Shown in pieces: positions 13,084-64,000 of a DNA stretch of 64,000 bases. The position numbers were made by a program, and so were the translations under genes. The notes under the pieces are model-generated. The model made no database searches. It had not been told where the DNA came from and saw only the letters and a program-made list of their open reading frames with translations. Positions within the stretch are counted from its first letter, which is position 1, and each line of letters opens with the position of its first letter. Source of the DNA: Nitrosomonas communis (GTDB lineage: Bacteria > Pseudomonadota > Gammaproteobacteria > Burkholderiales > Nitrosomonadaceae); assembly GCF_024102715.1 (NCBI RefSeq), contig NZ_JAGFJM010000009.1, forward strand, positions 4,041-68,040, read 5' to 3'.

Positions 13084-13336
13084 GATAGATCTCATCCAGC
13101 AGTCGATTTCCTGGAAGTTTATCGGACCTGGCACATCGCAACCTTGCCACTGCACTGTTAACGCTCTTCTATTCACATTCTTCTATTTCTGCTAGTTGGC
13201 TTAATAGGCCAGACTGGGTTAACATCCCCCCCTTTCTTTTGCTTTTGTTTCATGAATAACAAATCTGTAAAAACAGACGCTCATTCCTGTGATATAACAA
13301 AAAAGACAATATTTGAATCACTCTGTCTGGCAGCTG

Positions 13337-13364
13337 ACAGGAGCTGATTTCCTGTTTGTTTATT
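13337..13364 (+). terminator. Terminator-like hairpin in the mgtE upstream region
   Basis: ACAGGA-GCTGATT-TCCTGT followed by TTGTTTATT, about 30 nt before the mgtE start. Confidence 0.35.
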
Positions 13365-13396
13365 ATGACAACCCTTCTTCTACTGGATAATCTGCC

Positions 13397-14839
13397 ATGA
13401 GTGAAGATAATAATCACCATGAAAATGAAGACTTGCAAAGTAAACTGGAGCGAATAATTTATTTGCTCCGCAAGTACAGGCTGGTAGAAGGATTGGTGCG
13501 TCTGCAAGATTCACCACGGCAAGAACTGGTCGAATCCGTTATCCAGAAACAAAATCTGGCGAGCATTCAGAATGTGCTCGAAAAGCTTCACCCAGCTGAT
13601 ATCGCACATATTCTGGAAACATTGCCACTGGAAGATCGCCTCTTCATATGGGGTCTGGTCAAGGCGGAAAATGATGGAGAGGTACTGCTTGAAGTATCCG
13701 ATGCCGTGCGCGAAACGCTCATTGCTGATATGGGCAGCAGCGAATTGGTGGCAGCAGCCGAACAGCTTGATGCAGATGAAATTGCCGATCTGGCACCGGA
13801 TTTACCCAGCGAAGTCATTGAGGACGTATTCCGGGCACTGCCTCTGGCAGAGCGAGAGCAGCTGCGCGCTGCCATGTCCTACCCAGAAGACTCCGTGGGT
13901 GCGCTCATGGATTTCGACGTCATTACGATACGAGAAAATGTCAGACTTGAGGTGGTATTGCGTTATTTACGGCGCTTGGGTGAATTACCAGACCATACCG
14001 ATCAGCTGTTTGTCGTTGATCGCAATGAATATCTTAAGGGCGTGTTGCTGCTGAATCAGCTGTTAGTCACCGATCCTGAGGTCATGGTCAGCGATGCGAT
14101 GACCAAAGAAATCGCTAAATTTCACCCTCATGACAAAGCACAACAAGTAACCCAGGCTTTTGAACGCTACGATCTTGTTTCTGCCTCAGTGGTTGATGTC
14201 GATGGCAAATTACTTGGACGAGTGACCGTTAACTCAGTCATAGATTTCATCCGGGAAAAAGCCGAAAGTGAAGCACTCAGCCAGGCTGGCTTGAGTGAAG
14301 AGGAGGATTTGTTTGCGCCAATCTGGAAAAGTGTCAGGAACCGATGGGCATGGCTTGCCATCAATCTGGTGACGGCTTTCATTGCCTCACGTGTCATTGG
14401 CTTGTTTGAGGATTCCATCGAAAAACTGGTTGCACTGGCTGCGCTCATGCCGATCGTAGCAGGAGTCGGCGGCAATTCTGGCAATCAAACGATCACCATG
14501 ATTGTTCGCGCGATTGCACTCGGCCAGGTCAGTACCGACAGCACTCTCAAACTGATTGGCAAGGAAATTGGTGTCGGCCTGGTAAATGGCTTAGTATGGG
14601 GCAGCATCGTTGGCTTATTCACCTATCTCATTTATCAGAATATTTCGCTTGGCCTAGTCATGGCTTTGGCCATGGTGCTAAACCTGCTGCTGGCTGCGCT
14701 GGTGGGAGTGCTTATTCCATTGACACGTAAAAAATTGGGTCGCGACCCAGCCATTGGCTCCAGCGTCATGATCACTGCTGTCACCGATAGCGGTGGTTTC
14801 TTCATTTTTCTGGGGCTTGCCACGCTGTTTTTGTTATGA
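13397..14839 (+). CDS. mgtE: Magnesium transporter MgtE
   Basis: Acidic N-domain (LHPADIA), CBS pair, TM domain with MPIVAGVGGNSGNQT and TAVTD. Confidence 0.97.
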   Translation: MSEDNNHHENEDLQSKLERIIYLLRKYRLVEGLVRLQDSPRQELVESVIQKQNLASIQNVLEKLHPADIAHILETLPLEDRLFIWGLVKAENDGEVLLEVSDAVRETLIADMGSSELVAAAEQLDADEIADLAPDLPSEVIEDVFRALPLAEREQLRAAMSYPEDSVGALMDFDVITIRENVRLEVVLRYLRRLGELPDHTDQLFVVDRNEYLKGVLLLNQLLVTDPEVMVSDAMTKEIAKFHPHDKAQQVTQAFERYDLVSASVVDVDGKLLGRVTVNSVIDFIREKAESEALSQAGLSEEEDLFAPIWKSVRNRWAWLAINLVTAFIASRVIGLFEDSIEKLVALAALMPIVAGVGGNSGNQTITMIVRAIALGQVSTDSTLKLIGKEIGVGLVNGLVWGSIVGLFTYLIYQNISLGLVMALAMVLNLLLAALVGVLIPLTRKKLGRDPAIGSSVMITAVTDSGGFFIFLGLATLFLL

Positions 14840-15133
14840 GCAATCCATAATCTTGTGCTTACATTTTCCGGGTTTCCACAAAGCTCCAATCGACTCTACG
14901 CCCTACGCCAGTTATTTTGTATTTTGGGAAAGTAAGAAATTACTTTATGAGATGCTCCAGTTCTTTGATTAAATTTAGGGTGCGCGTTGACTCGATATAT
15001 TTTTTGAAACAGTTTATTACCCTTTCTTTCATATTTGTATGGATATCTAAATATTATCCATGTTATCTCCTTATACTTTAAGGTAATTGCTTAACTTAAC
15101 TATCATTATATTAAACTCCTTTTGATCGACAAA

Positions 15134-18322
<3,189 letters not shown>

Positions 18323-18348
18323 TCACTCCGCCTAGATGACTGCTCAAA

Positions 18349-19881
18349 CTAGTGATCATGGGTTGCGCCAGCTTTACCCAGCTCAGCTTTGATGGCAAAA
18401 CTGTTGCCGGTTGCATATTTTTCCCCGGCAGACAATCCCTTGAGCACTTCAACCATCGTGCCATCGCTGCGGCCAAGCTCCAGCGGACGCGCTTCGAAAT
18501 AATTGCCATAGCGGCCAAATACAACTGACCAGTCACGAAATGTTTGAATTGCTTCTACCAACACAGCCACGGGCACTTGTATTTCTTCTGCCACCAGTTC
18601 GGCAGTCACAAACATGCCAGGCCGCCATCTCCCATCATGGTTATCCAGCTCGACACGCGCTGTCGCAGCACGCGTTGGCCCACCAATCAACGTCGTTACG
18701 TATGTGACGGTTCCCTCTCCTTCCACATCAAATGCAGTTGCTTTAATTGCTGCTTGCTGCCCTACTTTAACCACATTCAAATCTTTTGGATAAACCGTGA
18801 TCGCTGCCCACACTGTCGACACATCGGCAATCGTAAAAATCGCTTTATCTTCTTTTACTGCTTCTCCTAGAACGATTGCTTTCGCAGTGATAATGCCTGG
18901 AATCGGCGCACGAATTTCATAACGGGAAAGATTTTTTCCCGAATGAGCAGACTCAGGACTTACCCCAAGCGCGAGCAACCGCTCGGATGCAAGCTCCAGC
19001 GCAATACTGGCTTCATCCCATTGCTGCTGTGCCGTTAGATATTCCTGCTTGGCAGTAATCTTTTCTTCCCATAATTGCTTTTCACGTTCATAGGTAGTTT
19101 GCGCCAGCGCTAATCGCTTGCGTGCAATGAGATATTGGCTGCGCAAATCTGCCAGCATGGGACTCTCGATAATCGCCAGGATCTCGCCTTTCTGCACATG
19201 CTGGCCATGATGGCGCTCAACCGCAATCACCATGCCTGGCATGCGCGGCACAACCTGCAAGATGGTGTGTTCATTAAAAATGATTTCACCAGGTAATCTG
19301 AGCGTTGGTTTAATGATTGCTGGGATAGCAGTAGCAATTTGAACCCCACTGCTTTTCAAGGTCTCGTCTGACATTTCTACGCGGGCCTCAACTTGGCTAT
19401 AACCCCAGCGGAAAGTGCTGCCATTCCACTCCGCGACAATCGCCAGATCAAAAGAATGCGGTTCTTCTACTTCCTGATCGCCAATCAGATAATCGCTTTC
19501 GGGCGTAAAGCGGAATAACTGGGCGGGTGCGCCAAGCCGCGTCAATGTAATACCAACATTGGCTTCAGTGGGTGGAATCAATTTGCCTTTATGATAAAGA
19601 TAAAGTCGAAATTGGGGCGCTACCCCTTTTTCAAAAATAGTCACCTCCACACTAAAATCATCTGCCGTAAAAAGCTTTCCTCCTCTTGGCCCTTGCGCCG
19701 GTTGATACCGATCACTCCCTCCTCGCTCCTGCAAAGCAGAATCAATGACAAATGGCGCCTCCTTATCACTTGCTACATCACGCACATCAGATGGACGATT
19801 TGCCGGCGTCAGGATGATTATGCCTACGATAATGCCGATGATAATGACAGTAATGATGGGCGCCCATCGTGTTTTCTCCAT
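18349..19881 (-). CDS. czcB: Heavy-metal RND periplasmic adaptor, CzcB type, with N-terminal extra domain
   Basis: N-terminal TM, lipoyl/hairpin core (IRAPIPG), WRPGMFV, LELGRSDG, C-terminal HDH. Confidence 0.9.
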   Translation of the reverse strand: MEKTRWAPIITVIIIGIIVGIIILTPANRPSDVRDVASDKEAPFVIDSALQERGGSDRYQPAQGPRGGKLFTADDFSVEVTIFEKGVAPQFRLYLYHKGKLIPPTEANVGITLTRLGAPAQLFRFTPESDYLIGDQEVEEPHSFDLAIVAEWNGSTFRWGYSQVEARVEMSDETLKSSGVQIATAIPAIIKPTLRLPGEIIFNEHTILQVVPRMPGMVIAVERHHGQHVQKGEILAIIESPMLADLRSQYLIARKRLALAQTTYEREKQLWEEKITAKQEYLTAQQQWDEASIALELASERLLALGVSPESAHSGKNLSRYEIRAPIPGIITAKAIVLGEAVKEDKAIFTIADVSTVWAAITVYPKDLNVVKVGQQAAIKATAFDVEGEGTVTYVTTLIGGPTRAATARVELDNHDGRWRPGMFVTAELVAEEIQVPVAVLVEAIQTFRDWSVVFGRYGNYFEARPLELGRSDGTMVEVLKGLSAGEKYATGNSFAIKAELGKAGATHDH

Positions 19882-19884
19882 TGC

Positions 19885-21270
19885 CTACTCCTTATATTCC
19901 TGGTTGCCGTCAGATTGGCGTGTGCTGTTCATGCCAAGAAGACCATCGAGTGGCGCTGCAATTAAACGCTCGATTTCATTGATCAAGCGCTGATAATTAG
20001 CAAGCGCGCGCACGTACAAAACTCGGTTCTGAAACAAGGCGCGCTGCGCATCTAGCATTTCCAGGAAACTGAATCTGCCTAACTCATAACCTCTATTCGC
20101 CACTTCAAAAGCACTTCTAGCCCCCGGCAGCACCTCGTCATGCAATAACTTAATCTCATTCTGCGCTGCCAGTAATGACTGATAAGCACGCGTCAGCTCC
20201 GTTCTGAGCAGCAAATCTACTGTCATCTGCTCATCCTTAGCCTTGTTCAAACGCTGATAAGCTTCCTGCAGATTACCCTGATTTCGGTCGAATAATGGAA
20301 TGGGTATGGATAAATTCACCACAGCAGTGGTATCTTCCGATATCAAGTAACGCCTTACCCCACCTCCCAGCGTCACATCAGGAATACGCCGCGACTTTTC
20401 AAGTTCGATCAATGCTGCACGATGCTCGACATTTTTTACTCCACGCTGCGCCAAGGGATTATTCAGAATGTGATGCTCAAGTACTTCAAATGCTGGTATC
20501 AAAACAGTTGCTTCAAGATCTCCCAGTACTTCGCCAAATTGTGGGATAGCACTGCCCCACAAAAGTGACAATTGCGTCCTGGCTGAAGCAAGATCCCGTC
20601 GTGCTTGTTCGAGTTCAATGGTTGCCGTTGAAAGCGCGACTCTGGAGCGCGTTTCTTCAATAGGTGGCGCTTTACCTGATTCAACTCGCTTATAAGCTGT
20701 ATCCACCACTTTCCGGGTCAATTGTAAAGTTTCCTCTGCCACCCGCAACCGCTCTTGTCCTGCCAATACATCGATAAACGTATTGGCTGTTCTTGCAATC
20801 AGCTCTAGTCTTTTTACTTCATAACTTTTATCAGCCAGCTCCTGACCTAGTGAAGCAACATCCATGCGGGCACGACGCTTTCCGCCGAGCTCAATCAGCT
20901 GACTAATACGGAAAGTGGTAAAACGCTGCAGCGCCGGGTTAGAGGAATTAACATCTTCTGCCTCAACTGTAAAATCAGGATTTCTGAACTTGCTGGCCTG
21001 AAGTTTTGTTCCTTCAAAAGCGAGTATCTCCTTAGAAAAAGAAGCAAGTTCAGGATTGTTTTGCAACATAAGCGCCAACACATCGCGCAAGGTTAAATTG
21101 GCTTCCTTGCGAAGTAACAGCTGTGCTGACTGATTCATATTCAAATCTAGCGAATCAGAATTTGCCTCTGCCCGGAACGGGTAATAAAAAAATATCAGAA
21201 GCAGTATTAAGATTTGCATCTTATGCAGCAAACATGAACATAATAGCGCGCCCTGTGATTTAAATTTCAT
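19885..21270 (-). CDS. czcC: TolC-family outer membrane factor, CzcC type
   Basis: QLIELGGKRRAR, IPIPLFDRNQG, YELGRFSFLEMLDAQR; GAGGA RBS. Confidence 0.9.
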   Translation of the reverse strand: MKFKSQGALLCSCLLHKMQILILLLIFFYYPFRAEANSDSLDLNMNQSAQLLLRKEANLTLRDVLALMLQNNPELASFSKEILAFEGTKLQASKFRNPDFTVEAEDVNSSNPALQRFTTFRISQLIELGGKRRARMDVASLGQELADKSYEVKRLELIARTANTFIDVLAGQERLRVAEETLQLTRKVVDTAYKRVESGKAPPIEETRSRVALSTATIELEQARRDLASARTQLSLLWGSAIPQFGEVLGDLEATVLIPAFEVLEHHILNNPLAQRGVKNVEHRAALIELEKSRRIPDVTLGGGVRRYLISEDTTAVVNLSIPIPLFDRNQGNLQEAYQRLNKAKDEQMTVDLLLRTELTRAYQSLLAAQNEIKLLHDEVLPGARSAFEVANRGYELGRFSFLEMLDAQRALFQNRVLYVRALANYQRLINEIERLIAAPLDGLLGMNSTRQSDGNQEYKE

Positions 21271-50984: not shown

Positions 50985-53900
50985 TCAAGTCTCAGATGAG
51001 TGAAAGATCTCGTCACCAGCAGATGGTTTGCCAATATAGTAACCTTGGGCAAAATCCACTTCCATTTTCTCCAGTAGTATAAGCACCTCCTCATTCTCAA
51101 CAAATTCAGCGGTAATTTTCTTACCAAAACCTTTTGCTACGCTGCATAAGGCTTTAACCAGTATTTGATCAGCAGGATTGCTTGCCAGATTGCGTACAAA
51201 TGAACCATCTATTTTCACCGCGTCAACAGGTAATTCTCTCAAATAGTAGAAAGATGAAAAACCAACCCCAAAATCATCCAGCACAAAACCGCAACCTAAT
51301 TCCTTAATTTCTCGAAGCAGGTTTCGTGTTCCGGGTAAATTATCCAGAGCGGCAGTTTCTGTTATTTCAAACATTAAAAGCGTAGGATCAACACCACTAA
51401 GCATCAGCTCCTGCCTAATCACTGGCAACAATTCCGGATCGTTGAACGCGTGTGCGGATAAGTTGATGGATAAGCGAATCCGGCTACCCGATTTATTGAT
51501 CTTGGCTGCTTGTGCAATTGCTTTACGCAATACCATATGATCAATCTCATGAATCAGCCCGGTATGTTCCGCAGCAGCAATAAAAACCGCAGGCGAATGA
51601 ATGGTACCGTCCTGATCGCGCATACGCAGCAACACTTCATAATGAGCGATCGTTCTATCACGTAGCGCCATAATTGGTTGGAAATAAAGCAGATACTTAT
51701 CATATAAATTGGCATATTCGATTTTTTCTTTCCAATGTACAAGCGTGTGCATTCGTTCTCTCGTTTGATCATCATCGGAGAATAGATGCCAGGTTCCCCG
51801 TCCGATTTCCTTGGCCTGATACATAGCAAGGTCAGCTGCGGCCAATAAATCGTGTACATTGTTACCATGCTCGGGAAAAAGGGCAATACCGATACTGGCT
51901 GCAATTTTGTATGTTCTTCCATTTACGGTTAGCTGTGTTTCACTTAATCTGAACAGAATTTTCTTTGCAACTTCAATGGCTCCACTCGCTGTAATTTCTG
52001 GCAAAATAACCGCAAACTCATCTCCGCCCAAACGCCCCGTCACATCCGCAGCACGAATGGTATGAGACAGCATGTCCGCAACTATCTTAAGTAAAGCATC
52101 GCCAGCTTGGTGTCCACTGGTATCATTAATATACTTAAATCGATCGAGATCAAAAAATAACAATGCGCCGGGATGCTGATATCGCTCCGCCCAGCTGATC
52201 ATCTGCTCGAGTTCTTCACTGAAACGGCGACGATTGTATAGATTTGTCAATGGATCATGGTCAGCCAACCATGCTAAATGACCTTCCACTCGCTTGTATT
52301 CTGTGATATCTAAGCCTACCGAAAGTACTGATGGCTCCCCCTCTGATTGCCACGACAAACGGGAATGCAACCAAACAATATGTTTTTTTGAGCCATCATT
52401 ACATAAAGTAATGGTCTCATGCCTCAGTTGCTCACGTCGGCCATGACGCATCTCCTCTAAATATTGACCAAGATTGTACTGCTCACTGTCAGGTGACAGG
52501 ATTTCAAAAAAAGGCTTACCGCGAATCTCTTCTTCGGAATAACGCATCAGCATTTCGCCATAAGCGTTCAACATTATTATGTTACCTTTAACATCCTGGG
52601 TCAGCACGATGACTTGCGCTGTATCAAGCAAGTGCGCAATAAAATCTTTCTCTTTGCTTAATTCATCCCGTTGCTGTACCAGTAGCTTGGTACGATAAAC
52701 AACTTTATCCTCCAGCATCTCAAGCTTATGAGACAACGTTACGGTTGCTTCATAAAGAAGATCAATCTCATCCTTTAGCCATTGTTTCCTGTTAATGGAA
52801 GAAAGGGTTGCGCGGAAAATTCCAAAGCTACTCCCTGCCAATAGCGGCAAGTTAAATACAATATGCTTAAGTTGTGAGAGTGGCTTAGAGAGGATGGCAA
52901 ATAACAGTATTTCTGAAAATACTAATCCAATCAGGCCGATGATGATAATACGCCAGATAGAATCACGAATCGCCTCGATGGTCGCTGTGATATCAGTAAT
53001 GACAACCAAGTGTGCCTGATTAGCCACCCCAATCCCTTGTAATGGGAGCAATTTTATGCGCTGATAGCGATTATCCCAGTTGGTTTGAATGCCTTGCTTG
53101 AGGCTCACAAGATTTGGATACTCTTGCTCCGTTTGATAAAGAATGTGAAGATTATTTTCTTTGTTGGTCAATGCAGCCAGATGTATCCCCCAATCAGGAA
53201 ACCATACATCATTATGCTTGAGTGTCTGTTTTTTTTCTTTTAGAAATAATCCAATGTCAGAGCCAAATGCTCGCTTAAAACCTAAAAAAACATCCGTCAG
53301 AGAAGCGCCGATAACAATTGTTCCTGTACGCACGCCCTCCACCAGAAGCGGCTCTATCGTAAACTGTATGCAGCTTTCCACGCATATCAATGGATTAGCG
53401 GGCTGCTCATGCAAATTGACTTCGCGGACATGCTTCAATATAAGCGACTCTCGATAGGCATCCGCCTCGAAACTGTCCCAGCCTTTCAGAAGCTGATTAG
53501 ATTGGTCGTAAAACCTTACGGCTTCAATTCCATTTTGAAGCTGCAATAATGGCCAGTGATGCTCAAATGCGCTTGCAATTTGCTTATCATTTTGTGCAGA
53601 CAAGGCTGTATCCATTCCTTTCAGGAACGGAATCATCCGGATCAGTTGATGCGAGCTGTTTGATATTTGCTCAACAAGACTCTCGACCTCTCTGACATAG
53701 CGCTTATATTGCAGATTGCTTTGCTGATCGATATTATCAATCAGGCTCTTATAATTAATGACACTGAATATCGTCACGACAATCAGCAAAATCACGCTAC
53801 TGAGTAGCGAAATTTTCCAATTCAGGCTGACAAACTTGGATGATGCACGATCAGCAACTTTGACAAGTTGCGTCGATTTCTCCGGAACACTTGGTTTCAT
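50985..53900 (-). CDS. Membrane sensor diguanylate cyclase/phosphodiesterase (periplasmic Cache-like, PAS, GGDEF, EAL)
   Basis: Two TMs flanking about 265 aa; PAS-like segment; DPLTNLYNRR, DLDRFK, RAAD I-site, GGDEF; EVLLR, EITE, DDFG, KIDGSF, QGY. Confidence 0.93.
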   Translation of the reverse strand: MKPSVPEKSTQLVKVADRASSKFVSLNWKISLLSSVILLIVVTIFSVINYKSLIDNIDQQSNLQYKRYVREVESLVEQISNSSHQLIRMIPFLKGMDTALSAQNDKQIASAFEHHWPLLQLQNGIEAVRFYDQSNQLLKGWDSFEADAYRESLILKHVREVNLHEQPANPLICVESCIQFTIEPLLVEGVRTGTIVIGASLTDVFLGFKRAFGSDIGLFLKEKKQTLKHNDVWFPDWGIHLAALTNKENNLHILYQTEQEYPNLVSLKQGIQTNWDNRYQRIKLLPLQGIGVANQAHLVVITDITATIEAIRDSIWRIIIIGLIGLVFSEILLFAILSKPLSQLKHIVFNLPLLAGSSFGIFRATLSSINRKQWLKDEIDLLYEATVTLSHKLEMLEDKVVYRTKLLVQQRDELSKEKDFIAHLLDTAQVIVLTQDVKGNIIMLNAYGEMLMRYSEEEIRGKPFFEILSPDSEQYNLGQYLEEMRHGRREQLRHETITLCNDGSKKHIVWLHSRLSWQSEGEPSVLSVGLDITEYKRVEGHLAWLADHDPLTNLYNRRRFSEELEQMISWAERYQHPGALLFFDLDRFKYINDTSGHQAGDALLKIVADMLSHTIRAADVTGRLGGDEFAVILPEITASGAIEVAKKILFRLSETQLTVNGRTYKIAASIGIALFPEHGNNVHDLLAAADLAMYQAKEIGRGTWHLFSDDDQTRERMHTLVHWKEKIEYANLYDKYLLYFQPIMALRDRTIAHYEVLLRMRDQDGTIHSPAVFIAAAEHTGLIHEIDHMVLRKAIAQAAKINKSGSRIRLSINLSAHAFNDPELLPVIRQELMLSGVDPTLLMFEITETAALDNLPGTRNLLREIKELGCGFVLDDFGVGFSSFYYLRELPVDAVKIDGSFVRNLASNPADQILVKALCSVAKGFGKKITAEFVENEEVLILLEKMEVDFAQGYYIGKPSAGDEIFHSSET

Positions 53901-53912
53901 GCGGATTTCCGC

Positions 53913-55133
53913 TTAAAAACGGTAGGAAATCTGGGCAGCAAAAAGATTCCAATGTTGATCGGTAAAAGCAGGATCAGGATTATCCAATGTAGAGAGCCAG
54001 GCTGTGCCATTTACGCGATGATACTCACCGCGTAACATAATTGCAGGGGTGATATTCCAGCGCACTCCCACAGTCAAATCCTTAGCAAATCGACTATCAG
54101 CAGGGAGCCCGGTTTTAGCACGCCATTCACTGCCATCTCGATCCTTTCTATCTGTAAACAGTACATCATACCGCAAGACGGCTTCCCAGGCTGGATTAAA
54201 GCGGTAAATACCCTGGAAATAAAAACTTTCTCCGGTAAAGCTCTGATCAACGAGAGGATGAAAATTCTTCAACTCGATATAGCGCAGTGCATATTCTGAG
54301 GTAATACTCCAGTGCTCGGCATTATATTGCGCAGAAAAAATTAACGGAACGAATTCAATTGAACCTGCGCTCAAAAAATCCCTCGCTGCTGGATCATACC
54401 CTGCATTGACCTGTGCTCCACTTACTCCTAAACGCAACCGCCCGCCGTCTCGCTCATAAATCATACGACCTAAATATGATAGTCTCGTCGTTAGATCACC
54501 TGGTTGATTCTTTCGCAAAATAGCTGCTTCGGTGCTTTTATCGTCAACTTGCGGAAAACCCGTTACAAACTGAACAGTAATGTCGCCCCAGTCGGCACGA
54601 GACTCCCCATACAATTGCACCCCATCTGAGGCCAGCCCCAAATTACGCGCCCGATCGAAGTAAATCGATTGTGGCAGCAAAATACTCGGCCGGGTAAAGG
54701 GCACATCGCGAGTTTCATTATAAAAACCAAAAGGATTTTTGGTTCGCCCTAAACGTATTCCGAATTCTTTAGCCTCGGTAGTAATCGCAGTGTAATCGAC
54801 AAAGCCATAATCGATACGTATGCCACCTTTACTATCTTCGCCTGTCTGGCGCGACAGCAATTGCCCTGAGAATTGAAGATTCGTCAGAGGACGATACGAT
54901 GCATTCACCCCGATCTCTCTAAAATCGAAACTACCCCGCCCCCGGGTGCTATCGCCAAACACGTCATTTCTTGTTGACGTTGTCTTGATGTACCCTTGAC
55001 TCAAAAAACCATGCACTTGCAAGCTTTTCAGCTCTTGCGCATCTGCCGCCTTAATGCACGATGGATGCAGTATAGTCAATAGCAACACTAACCGGATCAA
55101 AGAACCAATCAATATGACAGATTTATTCAACAT
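53913..55133 (-). CDS. Outer-membrane beta-barrel protein (porin-like), unknown function
   Basis: Signal peptide, amphipathic strands, C-terminal QISYRF. ATG 55133 preferred; the ORF extends to 55154. Confidence 0.75.
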   Translation of the reverse strand: MLNKSVILIGSLIRLVLLLTILHPSCIKAADAQELKSLQVHGFLSQGYIKTTSTRNDVFGDSTRGRGSFDFREIGVNASYRPLTNLQFSGQLLSRQTGEDSKGGIRIDYGFVDYTAITTEAKEFGIRLGRTKNPFGFYNETRDVPFTRPSILLPQSIYFDRARNLGLASDGVQLYGESRADWGDITVQFVTGFPQVDDKSTEAAILRKNQPGDLTTRLSYLGRMIYERDGGRLRLGVSGAQVNAGYDPAARDFLSAGSIEFVPLIFSAQYNAEHWSITSEYALRYIELKNFHPLVDQSFTGESFYFQGIYRFNPAWEAVLRYDVLFTDRKDRDGSEWRAKTGLPADSRFAKDLTVGVRWNITPAIMLRGEYHRVNGTAWLSTLDNPDPAFTDQHWNLFAAQISYRF

Positions 55134-55578
55134 GAAGGATCTGGATGCTGTCATCTATATTCACTCTCTTCAAATAACCGATAGCGCCCGGGGTGGTAGC
55201 GACCCGCACGCGCATTTCTTCTTCAGAATTAACTAGAAAGGGTGCCTGACCTGTGCCTGAAAAGATAAGCCGATCCCATGCCGAACGTAATTGATAGGGA
55301 AAAATGTTGAGTTTCTCTTTGGCAAAAAGATTATGCAACGGTGCATCGTCTGGCAACACGAATACTCTGATAGGAGAACCATCCTGCCATGCTCTTAGAC
55401 GCATGCCAAAAATAGCACGTAAAGAATTTCTGGAAAGATGCCGGATACCAACACCTGAGTGGACGATTACCTCAACAGGATCGCTGGTTTGGGTTGCACT
55501 TACAGCGAGTGGCGCACAAATTAACAAAAAGAGCAGAAAAATACAACCCCAACAATGCTCAGTGATACGCGCAGCCAT
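55123..55578 (-). CDS. Small periplasmic protein resembling one lobe of a type II (PstS-like) binding protein
   Basis: Signal peptide ending AVSA, VEVIVH, LRAIF, W, GAIGYL; about 123 aa mature. Confidence 0.7.
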   Translation of the reverse strand: MAARITEHCWGCIFLLFLLICAPLAVSATQTSDPVEVIVHSGVGIRHLSRNSLRAIFGMRLRAWQDGSPIRVFVLPDDAPLHNLFAKEKLNIFPYQLRSAWDRLIFSGTGQAPFLVNSEEEMRVRVATTPGAIGYLKRVNIDDSIQILHVE

Positions 55579-55590
55579 ACTGAAAATGTG

Positions 55591-56406
55591 CTAGTAGGTT
55601 ACCATGCAAATATCAGTATAGGACGCTTCCTTCCGACAACTACATATCGATTTAAAAGCCTCGATATTTGCCGGCCAAATTCTGCCGTTATCAGTCGCAA
55701 GTTCCCAGATATCATGATGATTTGCGTGCAATCTCTCCAGCACGTCAAGCAAGCAAACATAATAAGGACGGCGCTCACCATAGTAATCCACTATTGGTCC
55801 AATAGGATTAAATTGCATGCCATAAAAACTAAATAACCTATTCAGAGCAGGATCCATTGCTGAAAACAAGTGGTAAATATCATATTTGGCACACAATTGA
55901 ATAATACCGATCGCCAACCCCAACATGGGATGTGGGAAGCGCCTGCGCCTACCTACATCTGACTGCCTTGGAATCTTGTTAACCGTAAAATCGAGATCAT
56001 TCTTTCGCCTGAAAAAATCACTAAGAATACCAAATCTAGAAATTTCAACTGCTTGCTTGCGTGGCACATTCAAATCTGCATATGCCGGGTAAAATTGAGT
56101 ATGTAATTCGACCGGAAATTTTTGCTCAATATCTGAGGAATTAGAACAAATCAAACGGGTAGTCCCCACAAATGTATTGGATGGTCTGTGCCTTAATAGT
56201 AAATGCAAAGAACGGTCATCATATTCATCACGCTCCAACTCGTCAGGATAACTTGTCGCATCGACATTTGGATATTTATTTTCAATACATAAAATCCGGT
56301 ATCTTAGATTAAATACATTTTCTAGTAATGATGGCGTGTCAGCAAAAACGACTTCGAAGTATTCATGAAATGCTGCAGTGATATCATTCATGACGATCCT
56401 TGGCAA
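55591..56406 (-). CDS. PEP-CTERM/exosortase-associated acyltransferase (LuxI/FeeM-like GNAT fold)
   Basis: LRYRILC, LERDEYDD, GTTRL, VEISRF, AMDPAL, GERRPY; divergent from prsK. Alternative ATG at 56391. Confidence 0.85.
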   Translation of the reverse strand: MPRIVMNDITAAFHEYFEVVFADTPSLLENVFNLRYRILCIENKYPNVDATSYPDELERDEYDDRSLHLLLRHRPSNTFVGTTRLICSNSSDIEQKFPVELHTQFYPAYADLNVPRKQAVEISRFGILSDFFRRKNDLDFTVNKIPRQSDVGRRRRFPHPMLGLAIGIIQLCAKYDIYHLFSAMDPALNRLFSFYGMQFNPIGPIVDYYGERRPYYVCLLDVLERLHANHHDIWELATDNGRIWPANIEAFKSICSCRKEASYTDICMVTY

Positions 56407-57181
56407 CCAAGCTGGTTAAATTCCCGGCAAATAATTAATTGAGCTCATTTTACCGCTCAGCATTCAACTCAAATCAATGAAATGGTTTGAAGTCTTCCTT
56501 TATTTCAAAGGAATCAACATTCGTTAGAGAATCTAGAACTATCTCATATAAAAAACTCCAGCCCGCTATATTCTTTAAAAATAAGAAAGTTAAAAGTATA
56601 AATACTATCGTTTTTTCAAACGCATTTAATCAGTTTTTGTTAAAACCTTATTCTTTGATGTTATTTATAATAATTGTCGCCAAAACACGACGAATTATTA
56701 TATTCGCCGAAACTATCATGAAATGATGAAAAAATATATAAAAAGAAAACACAACAAGAAAATTGAGTGGCACAAAATCAGAATGAATAATCCTATGTGA
56801 CTTTAAAACATTTAGACTGTTTGCAAATAATGCTTGCAATAATTTGTGTTTTTAAATAATCCCCCTGAGAAATTCTCACGACTCACATCAATATTGACGT
56901 TGTAGATGTAGTAAAAATGAAATTGACCAGCATTGAGAACAGAGGAATTCCAAGCTCAGTTGATGACAGATTTGCACTAGCAAAGGCCTATTCTCAATAA
57001 AACGGATGAAATGATCATGGAGCACAAGTCTGATAGCCGTATGCATTCTCGACAGGATATACAACCGAGAAACCGCAATATGTAAGAAATACAGCTTATT
57101 TCTTGGTCTCATCATAATAAACATGTAAGTATTGTTCTTTTAGATAAAAGTGGTGGATAAAAATCGAGTATTACTTCTATT

Positions 57182-59278
57182 ATGTTGACAACCATTACGG
57201 CAGCTAGTTATGCCACCGCAGCCGTGGCCTATTTTTTCTTATTTGTTCTTTTGCTGACGAACTGGCGCAACCGCCTATGTGGATTGCTGCTGGCAGTTGC
57301 CTGCCTGGTTTCTGTTTTCTGGACTGCAGCTATCGTAGGTCAATCACACTGGGGCTACCCGTCTCCTTTGTTGATACGAGTCCTGGAAATTTTCCGCAAT
57401 GCAGGCTGGTCCATATTCTTGATTGCGGTACTGAGTCCTTTTCAGCAGAGGAAAGAAGATTCTGCCTCTCTGAGCATAAGGTCAGTCATTGCAACAATTG
57501 CGGCGCTTTATCTTATTTTTTTCGCACTTGCTCTTTTTGTGAATAGTAGCAATGGCGCAGAATTCACCACACATGGGCTGCCTGACTCTTACAGCAATTT
57601 CTTTACCGGTGTGCTAATGGCTGTAATTGGCATGATTCTCGTTGAACAGTATTACAGGAATACGCTACCTGAACAACGCTGGGGAATAAAGTTCATCTGC
57701 TTAGGAATAGGAGGTATTTTTGTATATGATTTTTACTTATTTAGTGATGCGCTCTTGTTCAGAAAAATAAACAATGACATATGGATTGCTAGAGGGTGGG
57801 TAAATACTTTGGTTGTTCCTTTGATAGCGTTCTCAGCTGCACGCAAGCCAAAGTGGTCTGAAGGCATTTCATTATCACGGCATGTTCTATTCTATTCGTC
57901 TACCTTATTGGGTGCAGCCATCTACTTGCTTGTTATGGCAACTGTCGGCTACTACTTAAGGCTTTCTGGAGGGGCGTGGGGAACAGTTCTACAGCTGACT
58001 TTCTTATTTGGCGCAATTGTACTACTGATAATTTTACTATTTTCCGGCACTACTCGCTCATGGCTTAAAGTATTCATTAGTAAACATTTTTATAATTATA
58101 ACTATGATTACCGGGAAGAATGGTTGCGCTTTACCCGCACTCTTTCGGAGGGTGAACTTGAATTAAGAGCACGCGCAATCAAAGCGCTTGCTCAATTAGT
58201 GGAAAGTCCTGCTGGTGGACTATGGTTTAAACAGGAAAATGGAAGATATCAATTAATCGCATGTTGGAATATTTTTCTAGAAAATAAAATTGTCAAAGAT
58301 GACGACAAGCTTTGTCTATTCTTGAAAGAAAAAGCATGGGTTATCGATTTACGGGAATATTGCTTGGATCCCAAAAAATACTCTGCTTTGATATTGCCGG
58401 ATTGGTTATCTGATATTCCAAAATCCAGATTGATCGTGCCATTAATCTTGCATAGAGAATTGCTCGGATTTGTCGTATTGATCGAGCCCAGGAGTACTAT
58501 CAACTTAAATTGGGAGGTTAGGGATTTATTGCGGGTAGCAGGCACGCAGGTAGCAAGTTATTTGGCACAATACGAAGCTACCAATGCGCTCTCAATTGCA
58601 CGCCAATTCGAATCTTTCAATCGCATGTCAACTTTCATCGTGCATGACATCAAGAATCTGATTTTTCAATTATCTTTATTGCTTTCGAATGCTGAGAAGC
58701 ATAAAGATAATCCGGAATTTCAGAAAGATATGATTGAAACGGTAAATTTTTCGGTAAATAAAATGAAACGATTACTCGAAAAGTTAAGTAATGGCAGTCA
58801 ATCGGAAAAGCAGGAGGTACTTAACCTTGATCAATTATTACAGCAAATCATCGAGAGAAATTCCTTCAATATGCCAAGACCTGCGCTTGAAATTATTGAT
58901 TCCGGTCTGATGGTAGAAGCTAATTATCCTCGGCTTGAGCGAGTAATCAGCCATCTGGTTCAGAATGCGATTGAGGCCACCCCTAAAAATGGTCAGGTTT
59001 GGGTCCGACTCGCAAGAAAGGATAATTCTGCTGTAATAATAATCAAAGACACAGGTCATGGCATGAGTGAGCAATTTATTCAGAAAAAGCTTTTTGAGCC
59101 TTTTGAATCTACTAAAACAGCTGGTATGGGTATCGGTGTTTTCGAGAGCAAGGAATATATTAACGAGCTCGGAGGACAACTAGATGTTAATAGCCAGGAA
59201 TCAGTAGGAACAACTTTCTCGATTATTCTGCCGCTTTTTCAACACTATCAGGAAAATAAAGTTGCCTCTCAAGATTAA
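57182..59278 (+). CDS. prsK: PEP-CTERM (exosortase A) system histidine kinase
   Basis: Multi-TM N-terminus, YDYREEWL, GAF-like region, FIVHDIKN H-box, QNAIEA, DTGHGM, GMGIG. Confidence 0.92.
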   Translation: MLTTITAASYATAAVAYFFLFVLLLTNWRNRLCGLLLAVACLVSVFWTAAIVGQSHWGYPSPLLIRVLEIFRNAGWSIFLIAVLSPFQQRKEDSASLSIRSVIATIAALYLIFFALALFVNSSNGAEFTTHGLPDSYSNFFTGVLMAVIGMILVEQYYRNTLPEQRWGIKFICLGIGGIFVYDFYLFSDALLFRKINNDIWIARGWVNTLVVPLIAFSAARKPKWSEGISLSRHVLFYSSTLLGAAIYLLVMATVGYYLRLSGGAWGTVLQLTFLFGAIVLLIILLFSGTTRSWLKVFISKHFYNYNYDYREEWLRFTRTLSEGELELRARAIKALAQLVESPAGGLWFKQENGRYQLIACWNIFLENKIVKDDDKLCLFLKEKAWVIDLREYCLDPKKYSALILPDWLSDIPKSRLIVPLILHRELLGFVVLIEPRSTINLNWEVRDLLRVAGTQVASYLAQYEATNALSIARQFESFNRMSTFIVHDIKNLIFQLSLLLSNAEKHKDNPEFQKDMIETVNFSVNKMKRLLEKLSNGSQSEKQEVLNLDQLLQQIIERNSFNMPRPALEIIDSGLMVEANYPRLERVISHLVQNAIEATPKNGQVWVRLARKDNSAVIIIKDTGHGMSEQFIQKKLFEPFESTKTAGMGIGVFESKEYINELGGQLDVNSQESVGTTFSIILPLFQHYQENKVASQD

Positions 59279-59483
59279 ATGTACTTTGTTATATCCTGTT
59301 TCGCGTTCATTCTGATAGATTACGCATAAAACTTGGTTTGCTATCATGCATACTGGCTTTCGGAAAAATATTTTTAATTTACCCAGCAAAATGTCAATAT
59401 AGGCTTCTGATTTTTTATACATTTTAGTATCTGCAAGATACCCCAGCAAATTTAGTTAATATGTCGAAACGTAATGTAAAAAG

Positions 59484-60842
59484 ATGAAGGTAAATAGTAG
59501 CCAAAAAAAATTACTCGTGATCGAAGATGATCCCGGTTTACAAAAACAATTACGCTGGAGTTTTGATGATTACGAAGTTTTCGTAGCAGCGGATCGCGAA
59601 AGTGCGCTGGCACAAGTGCGCCGACATGAGCCTGCGGTTGTAACAATGGATCTTGGTTTGCCGCCAGATCCTGATGGTGCGTCGGAAGGGTTGGCTACCT
59701 TACAGCAGATCCTCGCGCTTGCGCCTGATACCAAAGTAATTGTTCTGACAGGTAATCAGAATCATGCAAATGCCTTGAAGGCAATTGAATTAGGTGCATA
59801 TGATTTTTATCAAAAGCCTTATGATCCCAAAATGTTAAGTCTAATCGTTGATAGAGCCTTTTATTTGTATAGTCTGCAACGTGAAAATCGTAGCCTTTTA
59901 CTATCTCATTTGGATTCTCCCATTTCAGGAATTATCACACGCGATCCGGACATGATTAAAATGTGCCGCAACATTGAAAGAGTTGCGACTTCAGATGCAA
60001 CAGTTATGTTGCTAGGCGAAAGCGGCACAGGCAAAGAAGTTTTGGCCAGAGCGCTCCACCAGTTGAGCAGCCGGAAAGAAGCACGCTTCATCGCGATTAA
60101 TTGTGCTGCTATCCCTGAGACATTACTCGAAAGTGAGTTGTTTGGTTACGAGAAAGGAGCTTTTACTGGTGCAGTTAAGCAAACGCTAGGTAAAATTGAG
60201 TTAGCCCAAGGTGGTACTTTCTTTCTGGACGAAGTAGGTGATTTACCGATATCGTTGCAGGCAAAACTACTTCGTTTTCTGCAGGAAAGAGTGATTGAGC
60301 GAATTGGAGGGCGGGAAGAAATTTCTGTCGATGTGCGCGTTGTTTGTGCAACCCATCGGAATCTCAAAAAACTAATTGAAGAAGGCTGTTTTCGTGAGGA
60401 CTTGTTTTATCGTTTAGGTGAAATTTCCATTAAGATTCCCCCTCTGCGCAACCGAGTAGGCGATGCAGTACTACTGGCACATCATTTCAAAAATAAGTTT
60501 TCTGCAAAAGAAGGACGTCAGCCGCTGAGTTTCAGCCAGGAAGCGCTGGCCGCAATTGAAGCTCACCAATGGCCGGGTAATGTCCGGGAAATGGAAAATT
60601 GCATAAAACGCGCTGTGATCATGACGGAAGGGCCGCAGATTAGCGCAGATGATTTGGGGCTTCAAGAGTCGGAAATCCCGACAGAACCAATGAATTTACG
60701 GGAAGTACGTGAACGAGAAGAATGCAAGGCCCTAGTTAGGGCGCTAGCAAAGGTAGATGGTAATATTGCAAAAGCAGCGGAATTGCTCGGCGTTAGCCGA
60801 CCGACTTTATATGATCTGATGAACCGGCACGGCCTCAAATAA
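59484..60842 (+). CDS. prsR: PEP-CTERM sigma-54 response regulator
   Basis: Receiver (EDD, MDLGLPP), GESGTGKE, GAFTGA, WPGNVRE, Fis-type HTH GVSRPTLY. Confidence 0.93.
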   Translation: MKVNSSQKKLLVIEDDPGLQKQLRWSFDDYEVFVAADRESALAQVRRHEPAVVTMDLGLPPDPDGASEGLATLQQILALAPDTKVIVLTGNQNHANALKAIELGAYDFYQKPYDPKMLSLIVDRAFYLYSLQRENRSLLLSHLDSPISGIITRDPDMIKMCRNIERVATSDATVMLLGESGTGKEVLARALHQLSSRKEARFIAINCAAIPETLLESELFGYEKGAFTGAVKQTLGKIELAQGGTFFLDEVGDLPISLQAKLLRFLQERVIERIGGREEISVDVRVVCATHRNLKKLIEEGCFREDLFYRLGEISIKIPPLRNRVGDAVLLAHHFKNKFSAKEGRQPLSFSQEALAAIEAHQWPGNVREMENCIKRAVIMTEGPQISADDLGLQESEIPTEPMNLREVREREECKALVRALAKVDGNIAKAAELLGVSRPTLYDLMNRHGLK

Positions 60843-61005
60843 GCGCCGCCCTGACATCGGTTATTTTAAGATGATTGACAAGTTACTCATTATTCTTGAA
60901 TTTTTAAAGCTCACTGGTGGATCGGTAAATGCCTCGCCTTTAGGTGAAGGATACTAAGACTACACGCATGCAAACCGCCGGCTTTTAACCGCTAGCGCAT
61001 TCACA

Positions 61006-62592
61006 ATGCCCCATCTTTTTCATGAATTGATTTTTAGCACTGCAAATCGAGGCATTGATACTGAAGCGCTCGTGTACCAACAGCAGAGATTGGATTATGC
61101 CGCCTTGGCGCGAGAAGTGGAGCTTGCAGCAGGCGGACTGCTGGCTCTGGGATTAGGAAAAGGGGAGCGTGTTGCGGTTTATCTGGAAAAACGATTCGAA
61201 ACGGTTATTGCCATGTTTGCCACATCTGCAGCAGGCGGCGTTTTTGTACCGATTAATCCACTACTTAAAGCAGAACAAATCGCTTACATTCTGAAAGATT
61301 GTAACGTCAGGATATTGGTCACTTCGGCTGAGCGGTTTAATTTAATCATATCAGTGTTACCACAGTGTCACGACCTGCGTGTTGTAGTCATAGCCGGTGC
61401 GGCGGAGAATTTACCTGTATTGACTGGTGTACATGTGCTGCGCTGGTCAGAAACACTGAGCGGAAGAAAATCAGTCTGTGCATTCCGGTGTATTGATAGC
61501 GACATGGCAGCAATTTTGTACACTTCGGGTAGCACAGGCAGACCCAAGGGGGTGGTACTTTCTCATCGTAATCTGGTCACTGGCGCAAAAAGTGTTGCCC
61601 AGTACCTAAAAAATAATCAGGATGACCGGATTTTATCCATTCTTCCATTCAGCTTTGATTATGGATTGAGCCAGCTGACGACAGCTTTTTATGTTGGTGC
61701 GACCAATGTGTTGATGAATTATTTATTACCACGCGACATCATCGACGAGGTAATACAAGAAAGCATCAGCGGTCTTGCTGCTGTCCCCTCGCTGTGGATT
61801 CAACTTGCTCAATTAAAGTGGGAAAAAGTTGTTTCACTGCGCTATATGACTAGTTCAGGGGGAGCAATGCCGCGGGCAACGCTGGAGCAGCTTCGTCGCA
61901 CGTTTCCACAAGCTCGCATATTTCTAATGTACGGCTTAACAGAAGCATTTCGTTCGACCTTTTTGCCGCCGGAGGAGCTAGACAGACGCCCCGATTCCAT
62001 TGGCAAGGCAATTCCCAATGTTGAAGTCTTCGTGTTACGCGAGGATGGTTCGCATTGCGCATCGGGTGAGCCTGGTGAATTGGTCCATCGCGGACCATTG
62101 GTGTCCATGGGTTATTGGAATGATGCTGAAAAAACGGCCAAATGCTTCAGACCATTATCACCGCGCCAACCTGGCCTGACCCTTCCTGAAATAGCAGTAT
62201 GGTCGGGTGATATCGTGCGTATGGATGAGGAAGGCTATTTATATTTTATTGGTCGCCACGACGATATGATCAAAACATCAGGCTATCGCGTCAGTCCTAC
62301 CGAAATCGAAGAAATCATCTATTCGACCAAGTACGTTGCAGAAGCAGCCGCACTCGGTGTGCCGCATCCTTCCTTAGGTCAGGCAATTGTCGTGGTAGCG
62401 GTACCTCTTGGCGGAGTAAATCTGGACTCAACGACATTACTGTCTGCTTGCAGACTTCACCTGCCTGCTTTTATGGTGCCTAGCCAGATAGTGTTACGGC
62501 AAGGTTACTTGCCGCGTAATCTCAATGGCAAAATCGATCGTAAAAGTTTGGCACAGGAGCTTCAATATACTTTTATGCCAGCAGAAACATGA
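61006..62592 (+). CDS. Acyl-CoA ligase (AMP-forming), exosortase A-associated
   Basis: YTSGSTGRPKG, SFDYGLSQ, YGLTEAFRST, SGD, KTSGYRVSP, NGKIDR; 4-bp overlap with the decarboxylase. Confidence 0.88.
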   Translation: MPHLFHELIFSTANRGIDTEALVYQQQRLDYAALAREVELAAGGLLALGLGKGERVAVYLEKRFETVIAMFATSAAGGVFVPINPLLKAEQIAYILKDCNVRILVTSAERFNLIISVLPQCHDLRVVVIAGAAENLPVLTGVHVLRWSETLSGRKSVCAFRCIDSDMAAILYTSGSTGRPKGVVLSHRNLVTGAKSVAQYLKNNQDDRILSILPFSFDYGLSQLTTAFYVGATNVLMNYLLPRDIIDEVIQESISGLAAVPSLWIQLAQLKWEKVVSLRYMTSSGGAMPRATLEQLRRTFPQARIFLMYGLTEAFRSTFLPPEELDRRPDSIGKAIPNVEVFVLREDGSHCASGEPGELVHRGPLVSMGYWNDAEKTAKCFRPLSPRQPGLTLPEIAVWSGDIVRMDEEGYLYFIGRHDDMIKTSGYRVSPTEIEEIIYSTKYVAEAAALGVPHPSLGQAIVVVAVPLGGVNLDSTTLLSACRLHLPAFMVPSQIVLRQGYLPRNLNGKIDRKSLAQELQYTFMPAET

Positions 62593-63824
62593 CGATTATG
62601 CATCCAAAACATGCTCCCATAATGCAATTTCCGATTCACGATAATTGCCTCTACATAGGAGGGATTTCTGTAGTACGGCTAGCACAGCGAGTAGGTCAGA
62701 CGCCCTTTTATGCTTATGATAGAAAACTTATTACTGAACGCATCAACCTATTACGTCAATATCTGCCCGAGGAGATTCAACTTCACTACGCAATGAAAGC
62801 TAACCCCATGCCCGCTGTCGTTCAGCATCTGGTTGGGCTGGTAGATGGCATTGACGTCGCCTCTGCCGGAGAGATGAAGATTGCGCTAGACACTGGAATG
62901 CCTGCTGACAGGATTAGTTTTGCAGGTCCAGGCAAGAATGAGCGCGAGCTTGCTTGCGCCATTGCTGCAGGTATTGTTATCAGCATGGAATCCGAGCAAG
63001 AACTGGAACGCATCATGCTGTTAGCTGAACAAATGGGTATTTGTCCTAAAGTTACTGTACGAGTCAATCCAAATTTTGAACTTAAATCTTCTGGAATGAA
63101 AATGGCAGGAGGAGCAAAGCAGTTTGGTGTCGATGAAGAACGCGTTCCCGCCATGCTTACCCGTATAGGTCAATTGGGATTAGATTTGGAAGGGTTCCAT
63201 ATTTTCTGTGGATCACAGAATCTTAAGGCAGAAGCTATCCAGGAAGCGCATGAAAAGACTTTACAGCTAGGTTTGCACCTGGCACAGAACTCCCCTGTTC
63301 CAATTCGTACGTTGAATATAGGGGGCGGTTTTGGGGTGCCTTATTTTCCTGGCGAAACACCACTTAATCTTGCTGCAGTGGGAGGGAATTTACGGCGTTT
63401 ATTACTTAAAGCAAGAGCAGAACTTGCTGGAACCCGGCTTGTGATTGAGCTGGGGCGCTACATTGTAGCGGAAGCCGGTATTTATGTCTGTCGTGTATTA
63501 GATAAGAAATTGTCGAGAGGACAGGTATTTCTCATCACAGATGGTGGCCTGCATCATCATCTGGCAGCTACAGGCAATTTTGGTCAGGTCATCCGCAAGA
63601 ATTATCCTGTAACTATCGGCAATAAAGCAGAAATTCCTGAAACTGAAATTGCATCGGTAGTGGGCCCCTTATGCACACCGCTCGATTTGCTGGCTGATCA
63701 GATCGAATTACCCAAGGCAGAAATTGGTGACTTGGTTGTCGTATTCCAGTCTGGTGCATATGGCCTGACAGCAAGTCCAACAGCTTTCCTGAATCACCCC
63801 ATTGCGCCAGAAGTGTTAGTCTAG
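62589..63824 (+). CDS. Pyridoxal-dependent decarboxylase (LysA-like fold), exosortase A-associated
   Basis: YAMKAN (PLP Lys), FAGPGK, HIFCGSQ, NIGGGFG, ELGRY, GPLCTPLD, SGAYG. Confidence 0.88.
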   Translation: MTIMHPKHAPIMQFPIHDNCLYIGGISVVRLAQRVGQTPFYAYDRKLITERINLLRQYLPEEIQLHYAMKANPMPAVVQHLVGLVDGIDVASAGEMKIALDTGMPADRISFAGPGKNERELACAIAAGIVISMESEQELERIMLLAEQMGICPKVTVRVNPNFELKSSGMKMAGGAKQFGVDEERVPAMLTRIGQLGLDLEGFHIFCGSQNLKAEAIQEAHEKTLQLGLHLAQNSPVPIRTLNIGGGFGVPYFPGETPLNLAAVGGNLRRLLLKARAELAGTRLVIELGRYIVAEAGIYVCRVLDKKLSRGQVFLITDGGLHHHLAATGNFGQVIRKNYPVTIGNKAEIPETEIASVVGPLCTPLDLLADQIELPKAEIGDLVVVFQSGAYGLTASPTAFLNHPIAPEVLV

Positions 63825-64000
63825 TTCTCTGGAGAATGGGGTTTAATCGCAGCAGCCTGTCTATGTTTGCTTGATACAATCGGCAATATTTTCATCGACC
63901 CCCTGCTGATCAGACACTGATGAGATTTATGATCAATTCAATACCGAGGCAGGATTAAAATCACGATTAATGGATAAACGCATTATGAAACTAAAATTTA

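Follow-up and report, generated by a model that had tools for sequence, protein, structure and literature searches.

The locus considered here raises the question of whether an acyltransferase makes a small molecule that the proteins encoded directly downstream of it sense. The DNA analyzed, defined here as the window, is a stretch of 64,000 nucleotides of Nitrosomonas communis (assembly GCF_024102715.1, contig NZ_JAGFJM010000009.1, positions 4,041 to 68,040), and coordinates are window positions unless a locus number precedes them. The acyltransferase, referred to as the synthase, belongs to the exosortase-associated family TIGR03694. It is the first gene of a conserved unit of four whose last gene encodes a membrane enzyme with both domains for the turnover of cyclic di-GMP (c-di-GMP). 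The reading favored here, though tentatively, is that the cell makes a lipoamino acid, senses it in its envelope, and sets c-di-GMP accordingly.

Gene order and conservation of the unit

The unit (50985-56391, minus strand) is composed of four open reading frames (ORFs) arranged head to tail. These encode the synthase, a small protein of 151 amino acids, a porin-like protein of 413 amino acids, and a GGDEF-EAL enzyme of 971 amino acids. The TAG stop of the synthase occupies 55591-55593 and the ATG of the small protein is at 55578; the distance of 12 bp on the same strand, given previously in a sequence-only reading of this DNA, is exact. The ORFs of the small protein and the porin share 32 bp, and the porin ORF is followed by the enzyme ORF after a 12-bp gap. 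None of the three junctions between the genes contains a terminator-like site. The four genes probably form one functional unit, likely one operon under its own promoter.

The gene layout bears out the sequence-only reading in that the synthase heads a tight run whose last product is a GGDEF-EAL enzyme carrying a sensor domain in the periplasm. The span given there, 55123-56406, takes in the synthase and the small protein and leaves out the rest of the unit, and the porin gene was passed over in the downstream trio. The end coordinate reflects an in-frame TTG at 56406, from which the synthase ORF is open. The ATG at 56391 (MNDI...) is the start in all homologues and has the sequence AAGGA 6 nt upstream, and the TTG is an unlikely start.

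The unit was followed in other genomes from two anchors. The scan anchored on the synthase used one genome per species and gave 80 loci, nearly all from Nitrosomonas, Nitrosospira, or Nitrosovibrio. The small protein is the next gene on the same strand in 77 of the 80, a figure that speaks for the Nitrosomonadaceae and not for TIGR03694 genes at large. The porin and then the GGDEF-EAL gene follow wherever the DNA reaches. The exceptions are two loci at a contig edge and one, in Candidatus Nitrotoga, with a lone synthase. Median gaps along the gene order are 64, -20, and 11 bp, the downstream trio being tightly packed throughout. Between the synthase and the small protein, loci L001-L025 of Nitrosomonas have a spacer of 11-30 bp, and most Nitrosospira loci have one of 110-230 bp.

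The survey anchored on the small protein took in 68 metagenome loci together with seven contexts from genomes or metagenomes. The four-gene order is present in all 19 Nitrosomonadaceae-like loci. The porin directly follows the small protein in 60 of 63 assessable loci, and a dCache-type sensor is next in 42 of 46, with 34 of these being GGDEF-EAL enzymes. Three sensors of the other kind were checked with Pfam and are hybrid histidine kinases (HisKA-HATPase-REC-Hpt) located after the small protein and the porin (L090:7242-10277, L094:6599-10228, and L097:6980-10246). The N-terminal region of the window sensor matches all three kinases by phmmer, and Pfam identifies dCache_3 in the first. The small protein, porin, and dCache_3 sensor are an autonomous cassette, which occurs without the synthase and also with histidine-kinase outputs. 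A set of parts that stays constant while the output varies is the signature of a sensory module.

A TIGR03694 gene is directly upstream of the small protein in 30 of 57 loci (25 co-directional, 5 divergent). Nitrosococcus oceani (L081:567-3095) has the synthase, the small protein, and the porin, with an aminotransferase as the next gene. The linkage of synthase and cassette is also found in a Nitrospiria metagenome-assembled genome (L085) and in at least two metagenomic clades, of which one is L130/L143 and another (L136, L146, L148, L150, and L152) has a divergent synthase. All distant synthases tested (L081, L085, L086, L143, and L146) pass the TIGR03694 cut-off. In a rough tree of the small protein, the synthase-positive loci occupy three or more separate branches. 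That a rare gene family has come to stand next to the cassette in several lineages, and in either of two orientations, argues strongly for a functional link. The L143 and L146 clusters lie amid housekeeping genes, so the cluster is self-contained. With the linkage recurring this widely, the concern that it might be unique to this genome falls away.

In the locus L086:1-5944, whose flanking genes resemble those of L085, genes for an NtrY-like kinase and a response regulator of the sigma-54 type come before three TIGR03694 copies, two of them full and the third truncated (199 amino acids). The small protein, porin, and GGDEF-EAL gene come after these copies.

The four proteins and what they suggest

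The synthase scores 257 bits against TIGR03694 (cut-off 111.95; model positions 2-240 of 241) and also matches PF13444, which is the family of the ornithine-lipid enzyme OlsB too. By these profile scores it is unexceptional within an established family. The LuxI-like residues named in the sequence-only reading are all found and are invariant in 18 homologues: R30 (LRY), E53, D55, and D58 (E-x-D-x-Y-D), R79 (GTxRL), and E116, S118, and R119 (E-x-S-R-F). LuxI-type synthases of acyl-homoserine lactones (AHLs) such as BjaI, LasI, and TofI share this R / E-x-D-x-x-D / R / E-x-S-R pattern, and the HMMER alignment places the residues on the corresponding motifs of MesI and TofI, both AHL synthases.

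The AlphaFold2 model of the synthase (predicted local distance difference test score, pLDDT, 81) has a core like that of the GNAT acyltransferases. A basic insert of about 20 residues (129-149) is predicted to be disordered and is followed by an invariant RRFPHP. The top Foldseek matches of the model are BjaI, RpaI, LasI, and TofI (E ~2e-8) and FeeM. The match with FeeM (2g0b) has a template-modeling score of 0.69 at about 12% identity, and the insert and RRFPHP set the synthase family apart from it. The predicted fold is thus consistent with the LuxI/FeeM branch proposed previously, to which the NasY-type synthases also belong. Fold and motifs cannot tell a LuxI-type from a FeeM-type enzyme, since FeeM has the same fold. 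FeeM-type enzymes couple a fatty acyl chain, donated by acyl-acyl carrier protein, to the amino group of an amino acid.

It is very improbable that the synthase is a cryptic AHL synthase and the source of the AHLs reported from Nitrosomonas europaea, for which C6-, C8-, and C10-homoserine lactones are listed (PMC9095614). All LuxI-type catalytic residues are present and AHL synthases are the top structural matches, but FeeM fits the model equally well. The score against the autoinducer synthase family PF00765 is 21.3 bits (residues 54-133), under the gathering threshold of 24. The tryptophan that follows the first conserved arginine of MesI aligns with a gap, and no tryptophan is conserved there in the 18 homologues. 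According to two papers, family members that were expressed gave N-acyl amino acids or N-acyl-ornithine/lysine, not AHLs (PMC9762135, PMC7293339).

The sequence-only reading had the product of this family as unknown, a view that these papers make outdated. Long-chain N-acyl amino acids or N-acyl-ornithine/lysine are described there for TIGR03694 members in Escherichia coli, and N-acyl-ornithine/lysine for NmNAT of Neisseria meningitidis, an N-acyl amide producer of the same fold branch that is annotated as the same family (PMC9762135). The second paper cites Craig et al. 2011 for N-acyl amino acid products with long chains and ties planctomycete relatives to N-acyl-tyrosines that change biofilm composition (PMC7293339). 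Disruption of the synthase gene in Methylomonas LW13 was followed by loss of a polysaccharide band (PMC11072679). Judged by its family, the synthase of the window would make an N-acyl amino acid.

Four Nitrosospira-like gene calls (P0097, P0108, P0109, and P0120) give synthase-like proteins of 385-431 amino acids. They were considered as fusions of the synthase and the small protein and were rejected as such, being over-extended at the N-terminus. The N-terminal extensions of about 120 codons are alike in all four, which suggests a conserved upstream leader in that lineage or mere close kinship.

The small protein has a signal-peptide-like N-terminus. It scores 21.8 bits against PF12849, which is below threshold, over profile positions 92-185 of 267. 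A profile of its family matches PstS1 (4exl) with an E-value of 4e-5, over residues ~78-188 of the 265 found in PstS proteins. On these alignments it is a half binding protein, having one lobe of the PstS-type fold where a PstS-type periplasmic binding protein (PBP) has the two lobes of a Venus flytrap. The SGT phosphate-binding motif of PstS is absent, and P-Y-Q-L-R, conserved across the family, is found at that place. The earlier description of a binding protein in the sense of a classical receptor does not hold for such a protein. The family has more than 1,000 members and contains 305 clusters at 50% identity (E<=1e-30), with lengths of 94-295 amino acids in all 150 clusters listed. A residue signature separating synthase-linked from synthase-free small proteins was sought, and none was convincing; Y95, Q96, and S107 are merely enriched.

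The ancestry of the cassette, with a PstS lobe and the Porin_O_P family, is compatible with a second alternative, in which the cassette is an independent sensor of an outside solute such as an anion. The synthase would then be co-expressed in the same biofilm program and its product would not be the ligand. About half of the loci have the cassette by itself, and the core residues of the small protein do not depend on the presence of a synthase. This alternative is rather unlikely. A rare family recruited beside the cassette in at least three small-protein clades, and in two orientations, is difficult to account for unless there is a direct tie, the spacing in Nitrosomonas is tight (11-30 bp, L001-L025), and the phosphate-binding motif has been replaced by P-Y-Q-L.

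The 413-amino-acid protein has a signal peptide, ends in ...SYRF, and lacks a lipobox. It has weak OMP_b-brl/BBP2 matches. The OprO/OprP model (PF07396, Porin_O_P) does not match it at E<=10 and matches 13 of 26 orthologues, with a best E-value of 1.4e-7; one relative has a faint precomputed match of the OprO/P type. A search of PDB sequences with the porin profile gave nothing significant, and no OmpA C-terminal domain is present in the protein.

Another alternative is lipid export or envelope monitoring, in which there is no cell-to-cell signal. The product of the synthase would be a biosurfactant or an aminolipid of the envelope, such as an N-acyl amino acid or a lyso-ornithine/lysine lipid. 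The small protein and porin would move it to or through the outer membrane, and the dCache_3 enzyme, where present, would watch flux or the state of that membrane. The membership of OlsB in PF13444 fits this picture. So do the overlapping genes of the small protein and the porin, a hint that the two proteins pair stoichiometrically, and the N. oceani set, which has no adjacent sensor. The N. meningitidis member is reported to make N-acyl-ornithine/lysine (PMC9762135), and N-acyl amino acids act as surfactants (PMC4897644; PMC6669457). Export is held to be unlikely all the same, although it is the leading alternative. The small protein and porin go with the dCache_3 sensor (42 of 46) far more often than with the synthase (30 of 57), and 27 loci have no synthase to supply a cargo. 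The exchange of GGDEF-EAL for histidine-kinase output points to sensing and not to transport, and the unit has no gene for an inner-membrane exporter.

The 971-amino-acid enzyme contains, in order, a transmembrane segment, a periplasmic dCache_3 domain, a second transmembrane segment, and PAS, GGDEF, and EAL domains. Its motifs are RAAD-N5-GGDEF (with the RxxD I-site), EVL, EITE, DDFGVG, KIDG, EFVE, and QGY. All 60 orthologues compared retain RxxD with GGDEF, DDFGVG, and EFVE, and 50 of the 60 retain EVL. From these motifs, the GGDEF and EAL domains both look active.

The orthologue of N. europaea ATCC 25978 (L016:15041-15356) stops at 15043, within the EAL domain, and is 836 amino acids in length. 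The DNA from 15041 is a multi-copy element: its depth in RNA contigs rises about 10-fold, and a transposase-like C-terminus is encoded on its minus strand. The phosphodiesterase half of this enzyme thus appears to be cut by an insertion sequence. A close relative (L019) has a full-length gene.

Promoter, transcription, and surrounding DNA

The sequence TTGATT-N19-TAAAAT ends 55 nt upstream of the synthase ATG, in a block conserved among Nitrosomonas relatives. The block suggests a candidate promoter of the sigma-70 type, with a long spacer (19 nt) and missed by a consensus scan. A hairpin further upstream (Table 1) is located in relatives downstream of an asparagine-synthase gene (AsnB). The hairpin and the TTGATT block together suggest that the synthase opens its own unit.

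Each of 4 wastewater metatranscriptome runs has contigs that cross from the synthase into the small-protein gene, and N. europaea RNA-seq contigs are unbroken from AsnB to the GGDEF-EAL gene. These contigs are compatible with one transcript of the unit. They carry no strand, and the contigs labeled as sludge metatranscriptome are 10-110 kb long and DNA-like. Contigs of three wastewater metatranscriptomes (X49-X51) break at 56645-56696 and those of a sludge run (X15) at 56693-56757, a region that coincides with the conserved hairpin and a strain polymorphism (56694 A>G). The breaks could mark a transcript boundary or an assembly effect.

Control of the synthase by PrsR through sigma-54 was considered and rejected. 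No match to TGG-N9-TGC is present in 56392-57181, and no -24/-12 pair (GG-N10-GC) is conserved upstream of the synthase in 35 relatives. A riboswitch or known RNA in the synthase leader was likewise rejected, with no Rfam match at gathering score across the whole window nor at E<=1 across 55400-57300.

Table 1. Coordinates of the unit and of the features surrounding it (window positions).
Feature	Position	Strand	Basis or remark
Synthase, TIGR03694 / PF13444, 266 aa	55591-56391	-	ATG at 56391 common to homologues
Spacer of 12 bp, synthase stop to small-protein start; no terminator-like or promoter-like site	55579-55590	-	
Small periplasmic protein, 151 aa, predicted secreted, single PstS-type PBP lobe	55123-55578	-	PF12849 below threshold
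Outer-membrane beta-barrel, distant OprO/P-like porin, 413 aa	53913-55154	-	Weak profile matches; orthologues
Inner-membrane sensor enzyme, dCache_3-PAS-GGDEF-EAL, 971 aa	50985-53900	-	Pfam domains
Candidate sigma-70-type promoter, TTGATT-N19-TAAAAT	56447-56477	-	Alignment of upstream regions
Terminator-like hairpin with T-run	56677-56709	-	Kept in relatives
Interval with inversion breakpoint relative to Nitrosomonas sp. Nm132	56740-57079		blastn
PrsK histidine kinase	57182-59278	+	TIGR02916, 905 bits
PrsR sigma-54 activator	59484-60842	+	TIGR02915, 768 bits
Exosortase-A-associated acyl-CoA ligase	61006-62592	+	TIGR03098, 804 bits
Pyridoxal phosphate-dependent decarboxylase	62589-63824	+	TIGR03099, 620 bits

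The exosortase-system neighbors of the synthase in the window are PrsK, PrsR, TIGR03098, and TIGR03099. The divergence of prsK and prsR from the synthase had been taken as a possible link in its control. It is the result of an inversion specific to this genome, and it comes without a sigma-54 element. In a blastn comparison with Nitrosomonas sp. Nm132, L001 positions 939-7610 match window 57079-63839 in forward orientation, and 9663-19154 match window 56740-47247 in reverse. The junction is spanned by independent assemblies, and one breakpoint lies at or inside a sugar-transferase gene. In Nm132 this gene comes before prsK, and window positions 57079-57165 still match its 3' end.

Elsewhere in Nitrosomonas the PrsK-PrsR-ligase-decarboxylase-AsnB block is upstream of the synthase on the same strand. 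The PrsK-PrsR block is not within 10 kb in Nitrosospira and not nearby in Nitrosococcus or Nitrospiria. The divergence therefore has no regulatory meaning, since the block is inverted here only and is co-directional or distant in relatives. PEP-CTERM/exosortase neighbors are not general to the four-gene cluster, and none are found beside the Nitrosospira, L143, and L146 clusters. The ligase and the decarboxylase had also been put forward as suppliers of substrates, for which nothing speaks beyond their proximity in Nitrosomonas.

A sigma-54-like sequence, TGGATCGGTAAATGC, is located at 60918-60932, 74-88 nt upstream of the ligase start, and is absent from 24 relatives. The gap between prsR and the ligase is 163 bp here and mostly 42-70 bp in these relatives. 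The match is probably due to chance.

The left part of the window contains a CzcCBA-type heavy-metal efflux operon of the resistance-nodulation-division type (15134-21270), and the remainder consists of housekeeping genes (MetE, PrmC, PrfA, HemA, and MgtE). No exosortase gene was identified among ten large ORFs scanned in the left half (within 74-32492).

Proposed function, related systems, and meaning

Anatomy and conservation indicate that the porin, small protein, and dCache_3 enzyme are an envelope-spanning sensory cassette. In the favored reading, the cytoplasmic GNAT-fold synthase would make an N-acyl amino acid, an anionic lipoamino acid, which would reach the periplasm or the outer membrane. 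Its level there would be reported by the small protein, acting by itself or while docked on the dCache_3 domain. The dCache_3 enzyme would shift between synthesis and degradation of c-di-GMP, tuning a biofilm and extracellular polysaccharide lifestyle. The simplest reading of the synthase-bearing lineages is that the cassette detects what the synthase makes, or the effect of that product in the envelope, and adjusts c-di-GMP.

Several points weigh against this proposal. The tie between product and sensor is drawn from gene linkage, and a long-chain lipoamino acid would first have to leave the cytoplasm. The small protein is half of a PBP with no predicted pocket, and its AlphaFold2 model is poor (pLDDT 55, from 24 sequences). 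Its conserved core residues are alike with or without an adjoining synthase, which fits a ligand or partner common to all small proteins. Of 57 assessable cassettes, 27 have no adjacent synthase, including those of Motiliproteus and Sulfuriferula. The N. oceani set adjoins no sensor gene and fits an export role too. The RNA evidence leaves carry-over of DNA open, because contigs of 20-110 kb occur in runs labeled as RNA.

A broader form of the proposal is that the synthase and the cassette are an unrecognized signaling system, in which self-made N-acyl amino acids with long chains act as autoinducer-like cues for c-di-GMP or, elsewhere, for a phosphorelay. This is possible but doubtful.

An analogy with ScrABC of Vibrio parahaemolyticus, drawn in the sequence-only reading, is apt at the level of architecture. 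Both have a small-molecule enzyme first, a periplasmic partner, and a membrane GGDEF-EAL protein that carries a periplasmic domain and both sets of catalytic motifs. ScrA is a pyridoxal phosphate aminotransferase-like enzyme and ScrB a full two-lobe binding protein, whereas the unit has a GNAT acyltransferase and a single lobe. ScrABC has no outer-membrane gene, the sensor domain of the unit is dCache_3, and no sequence kinship is claimed. YfiBNR of Pseudomonas aeruginosa likewise spans three compartments, its jointly encoded products being a protein of the outer membrane, a small one of the periplasm, and a c-di-GMP enzyme of the inner membrane. YfiR is a DUF4154 protein, and no DUF4154 match was found in the unit proteins at E<=10. 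YfiB is an OmpA/Pal-like lipoprotein, unlike the porin-like barrel without lipobox, and YfiN lacks the EAL domain that the unit enzyme has. NspS-MbaA of Vibrio cholerae (PMC8967002) resembles the unit in that the gene for a PBP-type periplasmic partner adjoins that for a bifunctional membrane enzyme of the GGDEF-EAL type. In contrast to the half PBP here, NspS is a whole PBP, PotD-like and specific for outside or self-made polyamine, and its operon contains neither synthase nor porin.

The unit belongs to none of these three systems, as the enzyme class, half PBP, porin, and dCache_3 domain all differ. By analogy it may work as a circuit of the ScrABC or NspS-MbaA type that uses another signal chemistry and has an outer-membrane part in addition. 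Among the papers searched, none describes the cluster or links the small protein, porin, and dCache_3.

The cassette of small protein, porin, and dCache_3 is in itself of interest as a widespread, apparently undescribed sensory module with interchangeable outputs. Here the synthase has a fixed genetic partner and a readable output, c-di-GMP, and the question of its role, still described as unclear in the literature (PMC4897644), is therefore directly testable. If the broader form of the proposal is true, the exosortase-associated synthases would gain a long-missing physiological role. Beta- and gammaproteobacterial ammonia oxidizers and Nitrospira would then share a chemical language for floc and biofilm, possibly across species. 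Ammonia and nitrite oxidizers drive nitrification in soil and wastewater plants, where the formation of flocs and biofilms decides performance.

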